Shown here piece by piece: positions 42,822 through 51,761 of a stretch of DNA of 64,000 nt. The position numbers and the translations under genes were made by a program. Each line of letters starts with the position of its first letter. The stretch's first letter is position 1. The stretch spans positions 1,632,001-1,696,000 of the forward strand of contig CBDFJF010000002.1 of the NCBI GenBank assembly GCA_965248265.1, in the 5' to 3' direction. Under the pieces are notes generated by a model. It did not search any database and was not told the origin of the DNA. It saw nothing but the letters and a program-made list of their open reading frames with translations. The DNA comes from Candidatus Latescibacterota bacterium (GTDB lineage: Bacteria > Latescibacterota > UBA2968 > UBA8231).

Positions 42822-43080
42822 TCCGGAGCCGTACTTCAATGGGAGCCTACATTCTATCGCCAGTTTGTAGATGGCGGGGCTCGCGTCAGAGCGCGATGAG
42901 GTGGTATCGTCCGCTATGTCAAGCCCAGCGACTCGTCTTCATGAGTCCCTCGAGGGGTTCGCCCATGATCTCCACGTCCGTCGCGGAAGGCTACCTCTTG
43001 ACACTGTTCAAAGCTCGGCCCACTACATGTGAGAATTGTGAAGAGGGTGGTTGCGTCACATGCGTGGAATGAGGGGGGAG

Positions 43081-44079
43081 ATGACTGAAGAGCCTATCAT
43101 CAGGGTCGAGTCTCTCGGACGTGTCTACCGGCACATACACCGAGAGCCCGGCCTCTGGGGTGCCGTCAAGTCTTTCGTCCATAAACAGACCGTGGAGATT
43201 GCGGCGGTGAAGGAGTTGGATTTCGAGATCGTTCCGGGGGAGTTCGTCGGCTTTATCGGTCCCAACGGTGCAGGCAAGACCACGACGATGAAGATGCTCT
43301 CCGGGGTGCTCCACCCTTCTGGTGGGCAGGCTCGTGTCCTCGGCTACACGCCACACGAGCGCCACCACGATTATCTGCGGCAGATCGCCTTCGTCATGGG
43401 GCAGAAAGGCACCTTGTTCTGGGAGCTGCCGGCGATGGAGATGTTCCTGCTGACACGCGACATGTACGAGATCCCTGTCGCTGATTTCGACCGGTCACTC
43501 GAGACGCTGACCCGTCTCCTGGATGCCGGCGAATTCCTCGACGTGCAGACCCGTCTGCTCAGTCTGGGGCAGCGGATGAAGTGCGAGCTGATAAACGCCT
43601 TGTTGCACATGCCCCGGGTGTTGTTCCTCGACGAGCCGACCATCGGACTCGACGTGGCAAGCCAGAGGGCGGTCCGCGAATTCTTCCGGCGCTACAATGA
43701 GGAGACGGGGGCCACGATCCTGCTCACCAGTCACTACCTCGAAGACATCAAGTCGCTCTGCCAACGCATCATCTTCATCGCCGATGGTGCGATCGTCTTC
43801 GACGGCCCCCTCGAGCAGATCATGGCGCGTTACGCGCCTAACGTGCACGTCTCCTTCGTCTGCGACGACGACGAGCACGTGGCGGAGGCCGAGTTGCGTC
43901 CACTGGGCGAACCCGAGATCGACGTCGAGAACGGCGCCGTGCGCCTGCGGGTCGCCCGCGACGAGGTGACCCAGGTGGCGCGGGAACTGTTGAACCGCTA
44001 CAGGTTATCCAACATCCTGGTCGAGGAGCCTTCGCTGGAAGAGGTCGTCACAGCGCTGGTAACCGGTGATGCTCGGTAA
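43081..44079 (+). CDS. ABC exporter ATP-binding protein
   Basis: GPNGAGKTT, LSLGQRMK, DEPTIGLD. Confidence 0.92.
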   Translation: MTEEPIIRVESLGRVYRHIHREPGLWGAVKSFVHKQTVEIAAVKELDFEIVPGEFVGFIGPNGAGKTTTMKMLSGVLHPSGGQARVLGYTPHERHHDYLRQIAFVMGQKGTLFWELPAMEMFLLTRDMYEIPVADFDRSLETLTRLLDAGEFLDVQTRLLSLGQRMKCELINALLHMPRVLFLDEPTIGLDVASQRAVREFFRRYNEETGATILLTSHYLEDIKSLCQRIIFIADGAIVFDGPLEQIMARYAPNVHVSFVCDDDEHVAEAELRPLGEPEIDVENGAVRLRVARDEVTQVARELLNRYRLSNILVEEPSLEEVVTALVTGDAR

Positions 44080-44866
44080 GCTGCTCAAATACCGCCGGTT
44101 GATTCTGGTGGAGTCGCAGGGCGCCCTGGCCCACCGCTTCAGCGTATTCTGCTCGATCGCCGTCTTCATTTTTCCGGTGGTGGCCAAGGTCGTGTTCTGG
44201 AAGGCCGTGTACGGGGCCGGTGAGGGCGACATCGCCAGCTTCGACGTCACAGACATGGTCATGTATCTGCTGGTGTTCAACTTCGTCTTCGAAACGACCT
44301 GGGTCTACAAAGGGGGCCTGCGCCACGACATCCTGGGCGGCGGCCTCACGCGCTACCTCCTGATGCCGGCCAATTACGTGTTGGCCCGCTTTTTCGAGGA
44401 GTTCGGTACAAAGCCGCCGCGATGGGTCAGCTCCGCTTTTCTGTTCATCGTCCTGCTCCTGTTCTTTCGCCAGGATCTGCGCTTCGTCAGCGACCTGTGG
44501 GTCTACCCCGCCGGCGCGCTCGCCATGGGCATTGGGTTCGTCCTTGGATTCCTCCTCTGGATGCTCGTGGGGTTCGTCACTTTCTGGACGGAGAGCGACG
44601 TGCCGTTCATCGATCACGCTTACCGGCTGTTCAGCGGTTTCCTGGTACCCATAGTCTTCCTACCTGAATGGCTGGAGCACGTGGGCGCCGTGTTGCCCTT
44701 CCAGTACGTGATTTATTTCCCGGCCATGGTATTGATCGGCAAAGTCGAGCCCGCGGCCTTCGCGCACGGGATCGCCACGCAACTGGTGATGATCGCTGCT
44801 CTAGTCTTGGCCATCCATCTTGTGCTAAAACGCGGCGTGCGTCGATATGGAGCCTACGGTGGATAA
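44069..44866 (+). CDS. ABC-2 family permease (DUF990 type)
   Basis: Six TM segments; LPFQY..YFP; ends YGAYGG. Confidence 0.85.
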   Translation: MLGKLLKYRRLILVESQGALAHRFSVFCSIAVFIFPVVAKVVFWKAVYGAGEGDIASFDVTDMVMYLLVFNFVFETTWVYKGGLRHDILGGGLTRYLLMPANYVLARFFEEFGTKPPRWVSSAFLFIVLLLFFRQDLRFVSDLWVYPAGALAMGIGFVLGFLLWMLVGFVTFWTESDVPFIDHAYRLFSGFLVPIVFLPEWLEHVGAVLPFQYVIYFPAMVLIGKVEPAAFAHGIATQLVMIAALVLAIHLVLKRGVRRYGAYGG

Positions 44867-45656
44867 CATCCGACGTCACATCCGAGTCATCGGACGCTTG
44901 TGGCTGATCTCGGTTCAGCGAGGCCTGGCCTTCCGCTGGCAATTCATCACCGATCTACTCAACGAGGCTGTCGCTGTGGCGCTGGCTTTGTTGATGTTCG
45001 ACATCGCCTACGACCATGCGCCTGAGATCGGTGGATGGGATCAGTGGCGGACGATGGTGCTCGTGGGCGTGTTCCAGCTTTACTCAGTGCTGCTGGCCAC
45101 GTTTTTGAGACCGAATTTGGGAGAGATGACGCGGACGATCTACGATGGCGATCTCGATGGCCTGCTGCTGCGCCCGGTCTCGGCGCAGTTGCTGATCTCC
45201 CTGCGCCAGATCCAGGTCACGGGACTGCTGCGCGTCTTACCTGGAGTGGCCGTCATCATCTACGCGCTGCAGGCTCTCGAGTACACGCCGAGGTCGTTCG
45301 ATGTCGGCGTCGCCGCTGCCCTGTTGCTTTCCGGCATCGTGCTGGTCTACTCACTCTGGTTCATGTCGATGACGCTGGAGTTCTGGTTTCAAGGGCTGTG
45401 GAGTTGGCAGCAACTGGTCCCCAATGTCTTCGCCTTCGCCCAATACCCGGCAGGGGTCTACAAGGGGACGATGAAGCTGCTGTTCCTGACGGTCGTACCG
45501 GTCGTGCTCGTGGCGAATTTCCCAACGCAGGCGTTGGTGGGTGAGTGGTCGGTCTGGACAGCTATGTACAGCATGGGATTGGCCAGTCTGTTGTTGATAC
45601 TAAGCAGTCTGCAGTGGCGTCTGGCTCTGCGGCGCTACACCAGTGCCAGCTCGTAG
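44847..45656 (+). CDS. ABC-2 family permease (DUF990 type)
   Basis: GDLDGLLLRPV; ends ALRRYTSASS. Confidence 0.87.
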   Translation: MEPTVDNIRRHIRVIGRLWLISVQRGLAFRWQFITDLLNEAVAVALALLMFDIAYDHAPEIGGWDQWRTMVLVGVFQLYSVLLATFLRPNLGEMTRTIYDGDLDGLLLRPVSAQLLISLRQIQVTGLLRVLPGVAVIIYALQALEYTPRSFDVGVAAALLLSGIVLVYSLWFMSMTLEFWFQGLWSWQQLVPNVFAFAQYPAGVYKGTMKLLFLTVVPVVLVANFPTQALVGEWSVWTAMYSMGLASLLLILSSLQWRLALRRYTSASS

Positions 45657-45729
45657 GCTGGCCGGCGACAAGTACAAAAAAACCATCAGCGCCGGCATTC
45701 CCTGCGAACTCGCCGGGAGACGTCGTCTT

Positions 45730-46665
45730 CTATTCAGCAACGGTACCGTACTTGGTCTGTAGCTGGGAAGGAATCCGGGCGGCGACTTGGAGCTTGAGTT
45801 CGCCCGTGTCTTCGACAAACGGGCGGGCGAGGTATTTCGCCTTGCCACCGATGTGAAGGATGGCGGGATCCGTCTTTCGCGTGGGCAAGCGGATAACGTC
45901 ACCCGCTGTTAGTTGCTCTGCCTCGGCAACGGTCACGGAGGTGCGGCCGAGGACGGCTGTGGTGGGCAGGTCCATGGCACCCACGCGGAGGCGATTTGCA
46001 TGGCGGAGCTCCTCGCCCGTAGCGCCTTGCCGAGGCGGGATGCGGTTTTGTCCAGATTGGTCGAAACTGGCCAGAATCGGCTGTAGGGTCCGGTACGGAT
46101 AGCACATCGAAATCCGGCCCTTCGCATTGGTCGAGTTCACTCCGAAAGCGAGCATGAGGACGATCTCGTTGTCGGGGACGATCGTCATGAACTCGGGGTT
46201 GGTTTCGAGCTCGATATCGTGGACCTCACATTCCACGACGCTCTTCCAGATATCTTCCAGATCCCAGATGGCCTGCCTGATCGGACTGACGAATATGCCC
46301 ATCTCGGTCTGCGATATCTGTCTCGGCTCGACGTCAGAGCCGCACCCCTTGCCGCCGAAGGCTCGATCGACAACCCCGAAGACGATCGGCATCTGGAAGT
46401 CAATGATGACCTGACCGTCATACATATCCTTCGGACCGAGGTGAAACTGATACGCCACACCCGGGTTGGACAGCGACTGGATGAACTCGCGGTAGGTGGT
46501 CTGATCGACAAACTCGATGTCGACATCGACGATCGACCGCATCAGGTTGTTGAAGGAAATATTCAAGAGCCTGGCGAATTCCTCGTGCAGGTTCTGCACA
46601 AACCGCATCTGCGCCTTGTTCATCCTGGCCGGGTGCTTGAAATCGTATTCTATGATCCGACTCAT
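45730..46665 (-). CDS. fliM: FliM-like flagellar switch protein lacking the N-terminal CheY-binding peptide
   Basis: Starts MSRIIEYDFKHP; LHEEFAR, TYREFI, FGGKG, ETNPEF; C-terminal SPOA domain; ATGA overlap with fliG. Confidence 0.88.
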   Translation of the reverse strand: MSRIIEYDFKHPARMNKAQMRFVQNLHEEFARLLNISFNNLMRSIVDVDIEFVDQTTYREFIQSLSNPGVAYQFHLGPKDMYDGQVIIDFQMPIVFGVVDRAFGGKGCGSDVEPRQISQTEMGIFVSPIRQAIWDLEDIWKSVVECEVHDIELETNPEFMTIVPDNEIVLMLAFGVNSTNAKGRISMCYPYRTLQPILASFDQSGQNRIPPRQGATGEELRHANRLRVGAMDLPTTAVLGRTSVTVAEAEQLTAGDVIRLPTRKTDPAILHIGGKAKYLARPFVEDTGELKLQVAARIPSQLQTKYGTVAE

Positions 46666-47753
46666 GACGCAGGGTCTCCGTTGTCTTCGTCCGCCCGCGG
46701 CTCTTCCTCTCGCCGGCATCCCAGCTTTCGAAGGACGGCGGCCATTTCAGCCGCCTGAGCATCCATCGCACGCAGGACGTTACGCTCGACCTCGGACGTG
46801 CTCGCTTTGAGGATCTTTGCAGTTACCTGGGTGCCGCCGATTTCTGACCTGCCGGCAACGGCATCTCTGAACGACTCCTCGAGGTTGCTTTCCAGGATCC
46901 TTATCGCGGCTGGTGTCGCTTCGTCAATCGAAGCAATACGGTAGGCGACATCCGATTGCAGTCGTTCCGGGAGCTCGGCGAGGATGGCTCCGGCCTGTGT
47001 GGGTTCGAGTTGGGACAGCAACAGAGCGATAGTCTGGGGGTGTTCGGACACGATCCCGGGTGCAATCTGAGCGGCCGGCACCTTATTGAGGATGGTGAAA
47101 CGCGGACGTGACAGGTCAGCCATCGGCTCTGTGACATGCCTGGCCATGCGCATGCCGCGCGCACGTCTTACGGTTTGGTACGCAAAGTCGACGCCGCCCG
47201 TACGGATCCACTCACGGGCCTCCAGCTGCTGCCCAAAGGTGGCCAGATGCTCCTTCTGCGCTTCAACGGAGACTTGCGGGGTGTCCGAAATCGCTTGCGA
47301 CAGCTCGCAGAGCTCCCCGTAGGGGAAGGTGTCCGGGCCGATGATCTCGGCGGTGACTTGGACGCCCAGCGAAACCAGGACCAGGGCTGCCCGGTGGAAA
47401 TCGGCTCTGCCGTCCTGCCCGTCTTCGAGGGCCATGCTGCGCAGCAGGTGGGCGGCCTCTTCCGGCTGTCGCCAGACCGCCTCGAACACGCTGTCCGCCA
47501 CAATCCAGGCGGGCGCCTGGCGGACCGGCACAGTGCCAGAGGGAGGCTCATCGGCGGTCGGGGCCGGCGCGCCCATCTCGGTGTGGGCCAATCTGGGTGG
47601 CGACTCCGGCAGGGGCGGCAAGCTGGAGAGGTTCTCAACCAAAGGGGGGCGCCACTCCGATACTTGCGGAGAGCCCCCACGTAAGCCGTCAACATCCCCG
47701 AATATCCTCACGTCGATACCATCGGCGGTCGCAGTGTTCATATCGTCCATCAC
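46662..47753 (-). CDS. fliG: FliG-like protein (N and middle domains, C-terminal torque domain absent)
   Basis: AALVLVSLG, GGVDFA, EHPQTIALLLS, VAYRIA, GG...TAKIL. Confidence 0.85.
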   Translation of the reverse strand: MMDDMNTATADGIDVRIFGDVDGLRGGSPQVSEWRPPLVENLSSLPPLPESPPRLAHTEMGAPAPTADEPPSGTVPVRQAPAWIVADSVFEAVWRQPEEAAHLLRSMALEDGQDGRADFHRAALVLVSLGVQVTAEIIGPDTFPYGELCELSQAISDTPQVSVEAQKEHLATFGQQLEAREWIRTGGVDFAYQTVRRARGMRMARHVTEPMADLSRPRFTILNKVPAAQIAPGIVSEHPQTIALLLSQLEPTQAGAILAELPERLQSDVAYRIASIDEATPAAIRILESNLEESFRDAVAGRSEIGGTQVTAKILKASTSEVERNVLRAMDAQAAEMAAVLRKLGCRREEEPRADEDNGDPAS

Positions 47754-48019
47754 TTGGGTGGGAAAAGCCGGGTGACGCGCAAGGTGAGCTGCTCCTCGCG
47801 GACATCGATGTCACCCTCGCCGCAAAGCTGGTCGTTGATGCGATAGGCGTACTGCTGTCCGGCGAGCATGTCCACGGCGATCACATCGCCAGCGTGCAAA
47901 GCCCGGGCTCGCTCGAGCGGCATCAAAGCGCGGCCGAGCTCGACGACGAGATCGACCTCGACATCCAGCAGATGGTTGAGGTTGGTGTGCTGAAGCGTTG
48001 AAATGGCGGTGTCAGTCAT
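47750..48019 (-). CDS. Divergent FliN/FliM-C (SPOA domain) protein
   Basis: LLDVEVDLVVELGR..L.AGDVI; overlaps both neighbouring genes. Confidence 0.8.
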   Translation of the reverse strand: MTDTAISTLQHTNLNHLLDVEVDLVVELGRALMPLERARALHAGDVIAVDMLAGQQYAYRINDQLCGEGDIDVREEQLTLRVTRLFPPK

Positions 48020-48312
48020 GAGACGATCTCAGTGAGCCGTACGCCGAAATTCTCATCGATTGTCACCACTTCACCGCGGGCGAACAGTTTGCCGTTGAGG
48101 CGGACATCGACCGGTTCGCCCATCATCGTATGGAGGCTCACGAGTGACTGCTCACCGATGTTGAGGGCCTCATCGAGGGTCATGCGATGGCGGCCGATCT
48201 CGACCGAGACCTCGACATCGACCTCGTCGATCCGCGAATCCTTGTGAACGCTCTTTGCGGATGGCCGGGTGTCCCCCTTCGGGGCTGCCTTTCTCTTCGT
48301 TTTCGTTGGCAT
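48016..48312 (-). CDS. fliN: FliN-like SPOA domain protein
   Basis: VSVEIGR, GEPVDVRLNGKLFARGEVV..ENFGVRLTEI. Confidence 0.88.
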   Translation of the reverse strand: MPTKTKRKAAPKGDTRPSAKSVHKDSRIDEVDVEVSVEIGRHRMTLDEALNIGEQSLVSLHTMMGEPVDVRLNGKLFARGEVVTIDENFGVRLTEIVS

Positions 48313-48329
48313 TTCTCACTCCTGTTGAT

Positions 48330-48770
48330 TCATGAGCTTGAGGCGTAACCGCTCGACCGACGGGTCCCGACAGGGAATAGATTAGGCCGGATCCGGATGC
48401 CGCCGTGCTCCCTGACATCGTCCTCGGCGGCCGGCCACTCCGTCTGCGCAATGTCCCGACGCATTTCGTCTACAGTCTGCCTCAGGATCTGCACCTCACT
48501 GGCGAGACCCTTGATCATGAGCGCCACATCTTCCAGCGTCAGCGACGGTGGATCCTGTCGCAGCTGCTGTTCGATGCTGGTCCACAGTTCCTCCCGCGCG
48601 GCACCGCTGCGCAGGGAGGTTGCTGCTTCCCATGTGACCTGATGCGACTCGTACTCCGTTCGGCAGCTCTCGCACTCACTCAGGTGAGTTTCGAGCTCGA
48701 CTCGTTCGTCATGGGACAGTTGGTCGTCGACGTAGGCTGACAGATTGCGTTCGCACGAATAGCAGTTCAT
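48330..48770 (-). CDS. Soluble zinc-binding (zf-HC2/ZAS) anti-sigma factor
   Basis: MNC...LSAYVD.QL...HLSECESC (HxxxCxxC); no TM segment; GAGG RBS. Confidence 0.85.
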   Translation of the reverse strand: MNCYSCERNLSAYVDDQLSHDERVELETHLSECESCRTEYESHQVTWEAATSLRSGAAREELWTSIEQQLRQDPPSLTLEDVALMIKGLASEVQILRQTVDEMRRDIAQTEWPAAEDDVREHGGIRIRPNLFPVGTRRSSGYASSS

Positions 48771-48783
48771 CTCTCTTACGACC

Positions 48784-49347
48784 TCATGCATCGAGATAGG
48801 GTTTGATAGCATCACGCACGCGTTTGCGCGCCCGGTGGATCCGGACTTTTACCGCGTCCTCGCTGCACGAGAGGATTTCGCCGATCTCCCGGTAGGCCAT
48901 TCCGAGCTGTGTGCCCAGAACGAAGACGAGGCGCATGTTTTCAGGCAGAGCCGCGATAGCGGCCTCGGCTTTCTTGGCCATTTCCTTTTGTATGAGCTGA
49001 TCTTCCGGGTTGGCCCCTCGCGCCATGGGGATGCTCTTCTCGGCGACCGTCTCGAGAGAAGAGAATGCAGGCCGCCGCTTGCGTGCCTCGGCCATGCAAC
49101 GGTTCGCTGCGATGCGGTAGAGCCAGGTCCCAAAAGCAGCCTCCGCGCGGAACGAGCCGATGCTCTTGAATGCCTGGATGAAGACCTCCTGGGTCAGGTC
49201 TTCGGCATCCTGATCGTTAGGTGCCATGTGGGTGCACAGTGAGTACACACGGTCCCGGTACAACTCGAAGACCCTGCGAAAGGCGCGGTTGTCTCCCTGC
49301 TGGCAGGCGGCGATGAGGGCGATGTCGGCGTCGTTTGACAAATCCAC
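48784..49347 (-). CDS. ECF RNA polymerase sigma factor
   Basis: DAEDLTQEVF, FGTWLYRIA.N, YREIGEIL..S...VKVRIHRAR. Confidence 0.93.
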   Translation of the reverse strand: MDLSNDADIALIAACQQGDNRAFRRVFELYRDRVYSLCTHMAPNDQDAEDLTQEVFIQAFKSIGSFRAEAAFGTWLYRIAANRCMAEARKRRPAFSSLETVAEKSIPMARGANPEDQLIQKEMAKKAEAAIAALPENMRLVFVLGTQLGMAYREIGEILSCSEDAVKVRIHRARKRVRDAIKPYLDA

Positions 49348-49376
49348 TGCTCAAGTCAGTCTGGCATTCACAGAGT

Positions 49377-49405
49377 TTAGACGCAGAAAATGGCTACAGG
49401 TAACA
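49377..49405 (-). promoter_or_regulatory. Putative ECF-type autoregulatory promoter
   Basis: TGTTAC-N16-CGTCTAA about 30 nt upstream of the sigma start. Confidence 0.6.
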
Positions 49406-49633
49406 GGAAAATATGGCAAATGTAAGAGGGGCCCCTATCGCTACGATCTCGTGGGAGATGGCTGGCAACTACGGATGCGCCAGCTCTCGGAAGCTGGCTA
49501 CGCTTTTCTCGGCGCTGAGTATTCTCATCACGATCATATCAGACTATCATTTGTACGGACCTCAGTGTCAATGCGATTCGCATGGTGCTGAGGGTAGGCC
49601 ACGCGTCCGTGGATAAGTGGAACGAGAGACTCG

Positions 49634-50461
49634 GTGAACGATCAAATGCCCCCGCGTTTTAGAATACCTGCCTCGGTGTGGATCCTGGTATTACTGACAC
49701 TTGGCACCGTGCCTGCCAAAGCGCAAGGTGATTCGGCGGATGTGGACTATGATCTATTCCTCGGCACCATGGTGGATGATCCGGACAGGGCCGGCTCAGC
49801 ACCGTATCACCTGTGGCAGGTAGTCAATGACTCCTCAATCCCAGTCCAGTTTTCAGCCGCGGTCGGGTCGGTCTGGTCAGATCTCAGTCAATTGGACGCA
49901 GATCCGGCCACGCCTATCAATCTGCGGTTGGGCCGAAAGAACCGACTCGAACTCGGCGGTCGGGTAGACGGGGCGCTCACGGCCGGCGATGTCACCGGGT
50001 TCACCGTGGGCATGAAGCATCAGATTCACCGCTACTTCGCCTGGGGAGTGAACGTGCAGAAGGAAGATCAAAACGAGCGGGTGGGAGAGAAAAGCAGCAG
50101 GGGTTACGGCGGATCTTTCGTGTTCATCGCGAATGAGAATCACTTCCTGGGAACACCCATAGGTATGAAGTACAAATTCGGGGTCGGGCTCGGTGACGCG
50201 ATCAGCGCACGCGGTGCCGCCCTGAGATTGGCGCTGGAAGGCCGCAGCGACGTATCTGAATCGACGGATATCATCGGTGGTCTCAACGGGCGCGCTGTCA
50301 GCAGGGACTTCACGGACAATCTTGGGGTAGACGGCTTGCTCGGGACAGAAACCAGGTTGAGTGGCCCTCTGGCTTTACGGATCCTGATCGGTTTCGGCCT
50401 TGCCGGTGACGCCAGCCAGGACAACGCGCGAGGCAGTCTGTTTTTGACCTACGAGCGATAG
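49634..50461 (+). CDS. Secreted hypothetical protein, probable outer-membrane beta-barrel
   Basis: Signal peptide (AKA/Q); alternating amphipathic strands; ends GSLFLTYER. Confidence 0.65.
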   Translation: MNDQMPPRFRIPASVWILVLLTLGTVPAKAQGDSADVDYDLFLGTMVDDPDRAGSAPYHLWQVVNDSSIPVQFSAAVGSVWSDLSQLDADPATPINLRLGRKNRLELGGRVDGALTAGDVTGFTVGMKHQIHRYFAWGVNVQKEDQNERVGEKSSRGYGGSFVFIANENHFLGTPIGMKYKFGVGLGDAISARGAALRLALEGRSDVSESTDIIGGLNGRAVSRDFTDNLGVDGLLGTETRLSGPLALRILIGFGLAGDASQDNARGSLFLTYER

Positions 50462-50622: not shown

Positions 50623-51087
50623 TCAGGACGAGGATTGGCTTTGCAGTAACTCGCCGATGCGCCGATTCGATGCGACCAGTTTCTGACGAAGACTCATCAT
50701 TACGTTGCGGTATAAACGAGTGGCTAACGAAGGGTCTTCCTGCATCAGTTTGAAGAAGGCGCGGCGGTTGATGCCCAGGACCGAGAGCGCTGTTTCGGCT
50801 ACGACCGTGGCCGATCGCGGCTCGCCCGTCAACATCCCAGCTTCGCCTACTGTGGTGATGGCCGATTCGCTCACAAGCGGCACATCGCGCTCAGTACGGA
50901 TTTCGACCGTTCCGGAAAGAAGAACAAACATCCGGTCGCTTTCAGCGCCGGCTCTGCAGAGGACGGTCCCCGGTTCATGGCTCTCTTGCTGGCAGATGCC
51001 GAGCAGTTGCTTTAGTTGACTCGGGGACAGGTCCGCGAATAGCGGCACCTTCTGCAAGGCCAGCAGCACAGCCGATTGCTTACCCAT
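50623..51087 (-). CDS. Stand-alone cyclic nucleotide-binding domain protein
   Basis: PLFADL, LLSGTV, GEAGMLTGEPRSATV; no HTH domain. Confidence 0.9.
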   Translation of the reverse strand: MGKQSAVLLALQKVPLFADLSPSQLKQLLGICQQESHEPGTVLCRAGAESDRMFVLLSGTVEIRTERDVPLVSESAITTVGEAGMLTGEPRSATVVAETALSVLGINRRAFFKLMQEDPSLATRLYRNVMMSLRQKLVASNRRIGELLQSQSSS

Positions 51088-51335
51088 TTTATCTACTCCA
51101 AAAAAATAGACCGAGGATTTTCATTGCCAGACGCTATGGATAGTGTCTCGTGATGATATTGATGCCGCTATACATTTCCAAGCGACATCCGGTCAGCTGC
51201 GGCTAAAAGTATAAACTATTCGCAAAAACGATAATGCGATGGTGACATTTCTTCCCGAATCGAGTGTTGCAGTATTATACGGATGCGTCCCGGACGGGCC
51301 GGGCGTATCTACTCATTACCCCAGGAGGTATCAAC

Positions 51336-51761
51336 GTGCGCAAATTATCTGTCCCTCTCGCCGTAGGCGCTGCCGTCCTTGCAGTTGCCTTCACAGGATG
51401 TGGTCAGGCCGGCATGTTTGCGGCCGCGAACCTGACTCAGGTCGAAATGTCTGAGCCCAACTTCAAAGTCGTGGCCACCGGTGTGTCCGGCGAGGCCGAG
51501 GCAGCGTATCTGATCGGCGTCAGTTTCTCCAATGGCCCACGGACCGGGTCGCTGTCGCTGCATCGCCTCAGTGGAACGGGCAAACTTTACAAGGAGGCGA
51601 TGGAGGACCTGTGGCAGGCATTCGAGGCGGAACACGGTGAGGTGGCGGGTCGGCGGTTAGCTCTTGCCAACGTGCGTTATGATGCTGCCACGCGAAACTT
51701 GCTGGTCTACAATGACGTCTCTTTGTCGATTCGGGCAGACGTGATCGAATTTACGGAGTGA
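51336..51761 (+). CDS. Small lipoprotein (DUF6567-like)
   Basis: AGGAGG RBS; lipobox FTGC; TQVEMSEPNFKVV...ADVIEFTE. Confidence 0.75.
   Translation: MRKLSVPLAVGAAVLAVAFTGCGQAGMFAAANLTQVEMSEPNFKVVATGVSGEAEAAYLIGVSFSNGPRTGSLSLHRLSGTGKLYKEAMEDLWQAFEAEHGEVAGRRLALANVRYDAATRNLLVYNDVSLSIRADVIEFTE

Follow-up and report, generated by a model that had tools for sequence, protein, structure and literature searches.

An operon of flagellar switch protein paralogues encoded with an ECF sigma factor and a soluble anti-sigma factor in Latescibacterota

A second set of flagellar switch proteins is encoded together with an extracytoplasmic function (ECF) sigma factor and a soluble anti-sigma factor in a genome of the uncultured phylum Latescibacterota. 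The six-gene operon (hereafter, the module) occupies positions 45730-49405, on the minus strand, of the 64-kb stretch of DNA analysed here (the window), which is C2:1632001-1696000 of a 7.32-Mb genome (G000) of two contigs, C1 and C2. Among the genomes searched, the operon is confined to one class of Latescibacterota, and it is apparently undescribed; full-text literature searches returned no paper on ECF-linked or paralogous switch modules. Our favored reading, to which we give a little short of an even chance, is that the operon encodes a regulatory switch complex that generates no torque, is linked to the flagellar basal body, and is expressed under control of its own ECF sigma factor.

The six co-oriented open reading frames (ORFs) of the module were delimited from the ORF list and from Pfam and NCBIfam matches. 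They follow an ECF-type promoter (49377..49405) that consists of TGTTACC (-35), a 17-base spacer and TCTAA (-10). In order of transcription, and all on the minus strand, they encode an ECF (group 4) sigma factor of 187 amino acids (48784..49347), a soluble class I (ZAS-type) anti-sigma factor of 146 amino acids (48330..48770), two FliN-like SPOA proteins, namely FliN1 of 98 amino acids (48016..48312) and the more diverged FliN2 of 89 amino acids (47750..48019), a FliG paralogue of 363 amino acids (46662..47753) and a FliM paralogue of 311 amino acids (45730..46665). Two of these start sites differ from the ORF list. The anti-sigma ORF was listed as 48330-48815, and its start was moved to 48770 because 16 of 16 orthologues begin 15 codons downstream; the FliM ORF was listed as 45730-46719, and homology begins only from the internal ATG at 46665. 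With FliM starting there, 4-base overlaps join FliN1 to FliN2, FliN2 to FliG and FliG to FliM. The gap between the ECF and anti-sigma genes is 13 bases and that between the anti-sigma and FliN1 genes is 17 bases, the latter containing AGGAG, and purine-rich ribosome-binding sequences are found at both junctions.

The sigma factor matches Sigma70_r2 (65.1 bits) and Sigma70_r4_2 (47.9 bits) of Pfam and has no Pfam match to Sigma70_r3; the presence of regions 2 and 4 and the absence of region 3 place it among the ECF (group 4) proteins, as does its TIGR02937 score (106.8; cut-off 42.9). Five orthologues from the same family share 57-69% identity with it. The adjacent anti-sigma factor matches zf-HC2 (39.4 bits; cut-off 22.2), and residues C3, C6, H29, C33 and C36 are invariant across 17 anti-sigma sequences, giving the H-x3-C-x2-C signature of its class. 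No membrane-like segment was found in it, the highest mean hydropathy of any 19-residue stretch being 0.96. Its nearest solved chain is RsiW 5wuq_C (E 1.7e-4), and with the RsrA type and the N-domain of RsiW (5WUQ) it has in common the H-x3-C-x2-C motif, the zf-HC2 match and the lack of a membrane segment. Unlike those proteins it has a conserved C-terminal helix and tail of its own, belongs to a tiny family, and always stands beside switch-protein genes; it scores 27.1 bits with the RsrA model (cut-off 62.5) and falls under every curated anti-sigma cut-off. Only 8 of 1.84 billion representative proteins match its profile at E <= 1e-30, and Protein Atlas look-ups returned generic zf-HC2 and FliM clusters only. 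The ECF gene adjoins the anti-sigma gene in 18 of 18 loci of relatives, and solely from this adjacency we infer that the anti-sigma factor would bind and inhibit the co-encoded sigma factor. Complex prediction for the anti-sigma factor against the FliM, FliN1 and FliN2 alignments gave a score of 0.00, which speaks neither for nor against binding.

The FliG paralogue opens with a proline-rich extension of about 110 amino acids that carries a conserved W-x-P motif, and continues with FliG_N and FliG_M. It aligns to positions 13-234 of the 338 in TIGR00207 (score 131.7; cut-off 226.7), and its residues 121-338 align to residues 9-226 of the 331-residue Salmonella FliG (8umd_B). The three-domain plan of FliG (N, M and stator-contacting C) is incomplete in this protein, in which Pfam finds no FliG_C match; there is no room for such a domain because fliM begins at the fliG stop, and a novel 19-amino-acid tail stands where FliG_C would be. 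The EHPQ motif that binds FliM is in place, as EHPQT, in the window FliG and in all 18 aligned rows. The FliM paralogue consists of a FliM middle domain and a SPOA domain (PF02154, 152 bits; PF01052, 40 bits) and keeps GG-x-G, with G104, G105 and G107 invariant in 14 sequences. Its match to TIGR01397 starts only at model position 32 (score 190.9; cut-off 219.6), and alignment with canonical FliM and with module orthologues shows that it has no LSQ-x-EID-type peptide for docking of phosphorylated CheY. Both FliN-like proteins are above the cut-off for PF01052 (75.3 bits for FliN1, 51.3 bits for FliN2) and score 77.1 and 46.6, respectively, with the fliN model TIGR02480 (cut-off 84.05); FliN2 is 33-44% identical to its orthologues. 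All three NCBIfam equivalog scores (FliG, FliM and FliN) thus lie under their cut-offs. Single-protein scans of a collection of genome contigs returned one unrelated distant match for FliG and none for FliM.

The window copy therefore retains what is needed to build a ring, namely FliG_M and its EHPQ motif, the FliM middle domain and its GG-x-G stretch, and the three SPOA domains. A preliminary description of this DNA, made from the sequence, had reported six co-oriented genes behind an ECF-type promoter, the last four joined by overlaps, a soluble anti-sigma factor, and switch proteins that lack the torque domain and the CheY peptide and keep their assembly interfaces, and the domain matches and alignments bear it out on all these points. 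The domain families are those of the flagellar cytoplasmic (C) ring, as represented by the Salmonella structure 8UMD and the Thermotoga FliM-FliG structure 4FHR, and the module FliM profile matches 8umd_C and 4fq0_B. Unlike the C ring of the motor, the module is a second set beside a canonical FliM and FliN, shares its operon with genes for an ECF sigma and an anti-sigma factor, and comprises a FliG with an N-terminal extension and no FliG_C and a FliM with no CheY peptide.

Some 30 bases separate the promoter from the ECF start codon downstream of it, and its motif and position are kept upstream of the ECF gene in 17 of the 17 loci examined, in three families; the spacer is 18 bases in one of them, and that site was excluded from the 16-site matrix used for scoring. 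With this matrix the window site is the best in the whole 7.3-Mb genome (28.9 bits, against a maximum of 19.2 in shuffled sequence) and scores as high as the promoters of relatives. The second-best site (24.5 bits; C2:3545686-3545714) lies inside the region-1.2 coding part of a gene for a 286-amino-acid, four-region sigma-70 protein, and an exact-pattern search revealed no counterpart in other genomes of the family; it could be a chance match or an internal promoter and is treated here as unproven. The module operon is thus the only clear predicted target of the motif in this genome. Conservation of the motif suggests that the operon is autoregulated through TGTTACC-N17-TCTAA, and, as its promoter is the only strong site in the genome, the switch paralogues would be the main, perhaps the only, regulon of the sigma factor. 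Further genes preceded by this motif were met in genus g28, namely stand-alone genes for a FliM middle domain (G150, G152) and HlyD-like genes (G151, G152).

The distribution of the operon was surveyed in 168 Latescibacterota species genomes, with the anti-sigma factor taken as the most specific marker. Orthologues occur in 19 of the 168, in one class only; 18 of them (G000 counted) are found at E <= 1e-29 and the remaining copy, in G012, is split. By family, the module is present in 10 of 76 genomes of f1 (the family of G000), 3 of 22 of f4 and 6 of 31 of f2. Weaker anti-sigma matches outside these genomes span the generic zinc-finger part only. The linkage of ECF and zf-HC2 genes to switch genes, which the preliminary description proposed to seek in other genomes, is accordingly not peculiar to G000. 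In f1 the order ECF, anti-sigma, FliN, FliN, FliG, FliM is seen in 8 of 9 loci, the ninth being that of G012, where the anti-sigma gene is split and the FliN2 match is missing. In f2 and f4, FliM directly follows the ECF and anti-sigma genes in 9 of 9 loci, and all four loci with enough contig continue with FliN-FliG-FliN, sometimes duplicated.

FliG_C is present in 9 of 9 orthologous FliGs of f1 and is missing, as in the window, from the FliG of G129; four f1 FliGs, of genus g13, have no FliG_N. An LSQ-x-EID-like peptide is retained in most orthologous module FliMs. One or two receiver domains precede the CheY-type peptide of the first FliM in f2 and f4, and likewise in one f1 locus (REC-FliM loci: L161, L167, L163 and L150), and at several loci FGE-sulfatase domains are joined to FliN or FliG. 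The W-x-P extension and FliG_M are the only features common to all ECF-linked FliGs; the extension is also found on the FliGs of two further switch modules of G000, B and C (below), and stand-alone FliGs are without it. The core that every variant retains consists of FliG_M, FliM and the SPOA domains. From these comparisons, the absence of FliG_C and of the FliM peptide from the window copy is a lineage-specific loss and not a family trait, and to that extent does not support the reading given in the preliminary description; a single deletion would be the simplest account of both losses, since the two missing segments neighbour each other in the ancestral order of genes.

The switch genes had also been described as orphans, which is true of the window and not of the genome. 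No FliF, FlhA, FliP, flagellin or rod match of the genome lands inside the 64-kb window by family searches, which did not extend to the Che families, and when 40 ORFs of the flagellar cluster were compared with the 354 ORFs of the window, the matches were the module FliM and FliN, one weak MotB-like (OmpA-type) match and two matches to a generic signalling protein. A normal flagellar cluster lies 2.4 Mb from the module (C2:4.09-4.12 Mb). It contains flgBC, fliE, fliF, fliHI, fliK, flgDE, motAB, fliM, fliN, fliPQR, flhBA, flhF, flhG and fliA; its FliF (C2:4116108-4117625), FlhA and FliP were identified by family, and the other names, which come from position and visible sequence, are less certain. 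The canonical FliM of the cluster starts with an LSQDEIDALL-type peptide. The cluster has no fliG between fliF and fliH (C2:4115021-4117625), while FliG_M matches nine genes spread over both contigs, three of them mutually 94-97% identical, and six full-length FliG genes are scattered round the genome. The only FHIPEP gene of the genome is inside the flagellar cluster. Membership of the module in an injectisome, as a SctQ (SpaO/YscQ) sorting platform, was considered and rejected on this ground and on TIGR02551 scores of 63.6 and 28.7 bits (cut-off 100.8); SPOA is shared with SctQ, whereas the FliG and FliM-middle domains of the module are flagellar and not injectisome features.

A flagellum is a frequent companion of the module: FlhA is encoded in 16 of the 19 module genomes, compared with any FHIPEP match in 48 of the 149 others. 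Of the module genomes without FlhA, G132 is 80% complete, and G086 (92% complete) also lacks FliP, FliF and canonical FliM and has flagellins. The third, G158, is a closed genome of 8.4 Mb (100% complete) that has neither FlhA nor FliP, a short FliF frame, and only a remnant of canonical FliM, nearly identical to the canonical FliM of its sister G157. It still holds the module (L162:4288-8877), with the ECF gene split over two frames, and eight FliG_M matches.

A tree of 37 hand-chosen FliM sequences, which do not include every module copy, places the f1 module FliMs in a clade among the f1 canonical, module B and module C copies, and the f2/f4 module FliMs in a clade beside the f2/f4 canonical FliMs. 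Module FliMs, being grouped by family with canonical FliM and not with each other across families, stay close to the FliM of the motor. Since the ECF and anti-sigma genes and the promoter are orthologous across families and the FliM tree does not follow them, FliM may have been recruited repeatedly, or may have undergone gene conversion with motor FliM.

Such closeness raises the alternative that the module supplies a second, condition-specific C ring for the same motor, with the ECF/anti-sigma pair timing its expression; the window copy would then act as a brake or clutch on the MS (membrane/supramembrane) ring, delivering no torque and ignoring CheY. FliM and FliN exchange in working motors. 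The fliG missing from the fliF-fliH slot and the dispersal of full-length FliG genes imply a motor that already uses dispersed FliG, FliG_N, FliG_C and the CheY peptide are present in most module copies, and the operon is the only strong predicted target of the sigma factor, all as such a rotor would have it. Fusions to receivers, kinases and FGE-sulfatase domains and a 100-amino-acid extension of FliG would be unexpected in a tightly packed rotating ring, however; several orthologues (L148, L150 and L153) show poor conservation in the part of FliG_C just after the M domain, and the brake would suit G000 and G129 alone. We consider this alternative unlikely.

In the regulatory complex that we favor, the anti-sigma factor would hold the ECF sigma factor until a signal frees it, the signal being either thiol chemistry at the Cys/His cluster of the anti-sigma factor or capture of the anti-sigma factor by assembled paralogues. 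Freed sigma would transcribe its own operon, and the paralogues would assemble through FliG_M-FliM-SPOA contacts into a switch-like complex without torque. The complex would serve as a regulatory device at the basal body, where it may dock on, or compete for, the MS ring through its intact FliG_N. In relatives the scaffold would receive phosphoryl signals (REC-FliM) or relay them (the FliG-histidine kinase beside an NtrC-type activator). In G000, FliG_C and the FliM N-peptide were probably lost together in one deletion, leaving a version that is torque-less and blind to CheY.

Could the window copy instead be a relic, a cluster on its way to becoming pseudogenes after deletion of FliG_C and the FliM N-peptide? 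Its trimming departs from 9 of 9 orthologues of the family, its FliM is the longest branch of the FliM tree (0.96), and four of its proteins have diverged faster than those of relatives: mean identities of the window anti-sigma, FliN2, FliG and FliM to five same-family orthologues are 48, 41, 41 and 51%, compared with 54, 47, 49 and 62% among the relatives themselves. Copies that look damaged do occur in G012, G157 and G158. The ECF and FliN1 proteins of the window, on the other hand, are as conserved as elsewhere in the family, all six frames are open, the start/stop coupling and ribosome-binding sites are intact, and the promoter scores like those of relatives. A contig from a strain about 97% identical spans 45712-49434 with 119 substitutions and no gaps, and has the same trimmed layout. 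Codon scoring used 40 of the 114 listed differences, which are those in fliM and in the final 52 codons of fliG. For fliM, 18 synonymous and 14 non-synonymous differences over 216.7 and 716.3 sites, respectively, yield a ratio of non-synonymous to synonymous changes per site (pN/pS) of 0.24; FliM is under purifying selection. The tail, fliG codons 311-362, has 2 synonymous and 6 non-synonymous changes and so a ratio close to 1, as a relic would show. The pN/pS of FliM already weakens the relic account. The preliminary description had itself named restriction to one genome and near-neutral change as marks of decay, and neither describes a module seen in 19 of 168 genomes with this ratio in its FliM; its other refuting condition, a complete flagellar system with no further fliG, fliM or fliN copies, does not hold for G000 either. 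We regard decay of the window copy as very unlikely.

Switch proteins recur elsewhere in G000 as well. Module B (C2:272854-275667) encodes two FliN proteins, a FliG that is full-length and bears the W-x-P extension, and a FliM that is 77% identical to canonical FliM and has no CheY peptide; no ECF or anti-sigma gene adjoins it. Module C (C1:357620-364676) encodes a REC-sigma54-HTH activator, FliM, FliN, a FliN-FGE-sulfatase fusion and a FliG-kinase fusion of 1031 amino acids, FliG(N+M)-HisKA-HATPase-REC, which looks like a kinase built onto rotor domains; FliG frames of 935-1035 amino acids were also noted in G019 and G021. By Pfam, an ECF sigma factor and a C-terminal FliM middle domain are united in one chain in G000 (C1:657150-658355) and in G008 (L312:1501-2643). 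This fusion may represent a previously unknown type of C-terminal extension in ECF sigma factors. Frames of similar length occur in G129, G086, G019 and G151.

The preliminary description had gone on to propose that the switch complex has become a free cytoplasmic scaffold or sensor: a ring or oligomer of paralogues off the flagellum, whose assembly or phosphorylation state is read by the anti-sigma/ECF pair. That switch proteins are wired into signalling stands, given the REC-FliM, FliG-kinase, ECF-FliM and FGE-sulfatase fusions, of which the ECF-FliM proteins physically tie FliM-type domains to sigma factors of this class. Freedom from the flagellum is another matter: a flagellum-linked role fits the occurrence of flagella in 16 of 19 module genomes at least as well. 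The stress response to which the preliminary description tied the complex is an assumption. Rotor domains are dispensable in some copies (FliG_N in the four g13 loci, FliG_C in the window and G129), the W-x-P extension marks every ECF-linked FliG and none of the stand-alone ones, and closed G158, though devoid of FlhA and FliP, still has several paralogues of FliG and FliM, as a scaffold independent of the motor would allow; a 2025 survey that notes rotor proteins in non-motile genomes raises an alternative function for them (PMC12199754). Against this, the flagellar loss in G158 is recent, to judge from a FliM remnant nearly the same as that of flagellated G157, and its module ECF is split; no output regulon beyond the operon is visible in G000; and most family members retain the CheY peptide, FliG_N and FliG_C, a complete rotor tool-kit. 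We judge a free scaffold to be rather unlikely. A broader proposal, possible in our view if somewhat doubtful, is that Latescibacterota use switch proteins as a general signalling scaffold. The FliG_M-FliM-SPOA polymer would be a cooperative, ring-based device independent of rotation; its input would be phosphoryl groups, through fused receivers or the CheY peptide, and its outputs would be the anti-sigma/ECF pair, the FliG-kinase with the NtrC-type activator (module C) and those ECF sigma factors to which a FliM domain is joined in cis. The window copy would represent the minimal core.

Several points weigh against the basal-body regulatory complex itself. The contacts among the switch paralogues, the anti-sigma factor, the sigma factor and FliF are predicted ones, and if the operon is the sole target of the sigma factor then a sensor role of the paralogues would have no visible output. 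A basal-body site is doubtful for the genus-g13 copies, because their FliGs have no FliG_N and so lack the usual means of docking on FliF, and bulky fusions (FGE-sulfatase, kinase) are hard to fit in a rotating ring. Co-occurrence with flagella is uncorrected for shared ancestry and could mirror free-living versus host-associated lifestyles; closed G158, without FlhA, FliP or intact canonical FliM, carries the module nonetheless, albeit with a split ECF gene. Finally, the window anti-sigma, FliN2, FliG and FliM are 6-11 points more diverged than those of relatives, and the FliG tail evolves near-neutrally. A membrane anchor other than the flagellar one was sought in a second YscJ/FliF-like gene (C2:2882258-2882842), a candidate that was dropped, its product being an isolated 194-amino-acid protein encoded among unrelated enzymes.

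Two regulatory arrangements are also among the closest known systems. In polar flagellates, the FlgS/FlgR pair senses the FliF-FliG ring as a cue for transcription (PMC7064773). A separate kinase senses the normal rotor there, and the likeness to the module is by analogy only; the counterpart in G000 is module C, in which FliG(N+M) and a histidine kinase form one protein, encoded next to an NtrC-type sigma54 activator. By contrast with FlgS/FlgR, G000 has dedicated paralogues, which either are fused to regulators or share an operon with them; in the window this regulator is an ECF/anti-sigma pair. ECF sigma factors with C-terminal regulatory extensions are likewise known (reviewed in PMC8999054). 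The G000 and G008 proteins also carry a C-terminal domain in cis, here a FliM middle domain, and ECF-TPR fusions are present in G000 as well. In its main text, the paper that reclassified the ECF sigma factors (PMC7826278) uses none of the words FliM, FliN and FliG, its supplementary context tables lying outside this check.

Other genes of G000 add to the inventory of switch domains and ECF sigma factors. An adenylate/guanylate cyclase is fused to FliG_C at C1:823409-824536 (L174:1409-2536), and a 238-amino-acid protein has two tandem FliG_C domains (L173:2480-3196). A fifth, deeply branching FliM paralogue, X (C2:3293180-3294214; L022:1189-2223), has an acidic N-terminal peptide of its own and is conserved widely among the genomes of the family. 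A cluster at C1:670181-685225 comprises four long ECF sigma genes, of which three have TPR extensions (L308:2181-17225), with a reverse-transcriptase gene (RVT_1) nearby (L307:10111-11439). In the window, genes for an ABC ATPase and two ABC-2-type permease-like proteins (43051-45656) converge on the fliM end of the module; beyond the ECF side are genes for a protein that has a signal peptide and matches no Pfam family (49634-50461), a cyclic nucleotide (cNMP)-binding protein (50623-51087) and a DUF6567 protein (51264-51761). When the ORFs of 18 related loci were compared with these six flanking genes, no match reached E <= 1e-5, and, as no flanking gene recurs there, the conserved unit is the six module genes alone.

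Textbooks present the C ring as the model of a protein switch that is cooperative and ultrasensitive, and it is known only in rotating motors or, distantly, in injectisomes. Here, a spare switch set is coupled to an ECF/anti-sigma pair in three families of an uncultured phylum, in a lineage where switch domains are found joined to kinases, receivers, a cyclase and ECF sigma factors as well. All parts of the module are small soluble proteins, suited to expression in E. coli. If the complex acts at the motor, it would provide a new route that links the state of the flagellum to gene expression, or a means of stalling the motor on demand. If it acts away from the motor, it would be the first described reuse of the whole switch complex as a signalling device, and would bear on why rotor genes persist without flagella, a question posed in the 2025 survey (PMC12199754).

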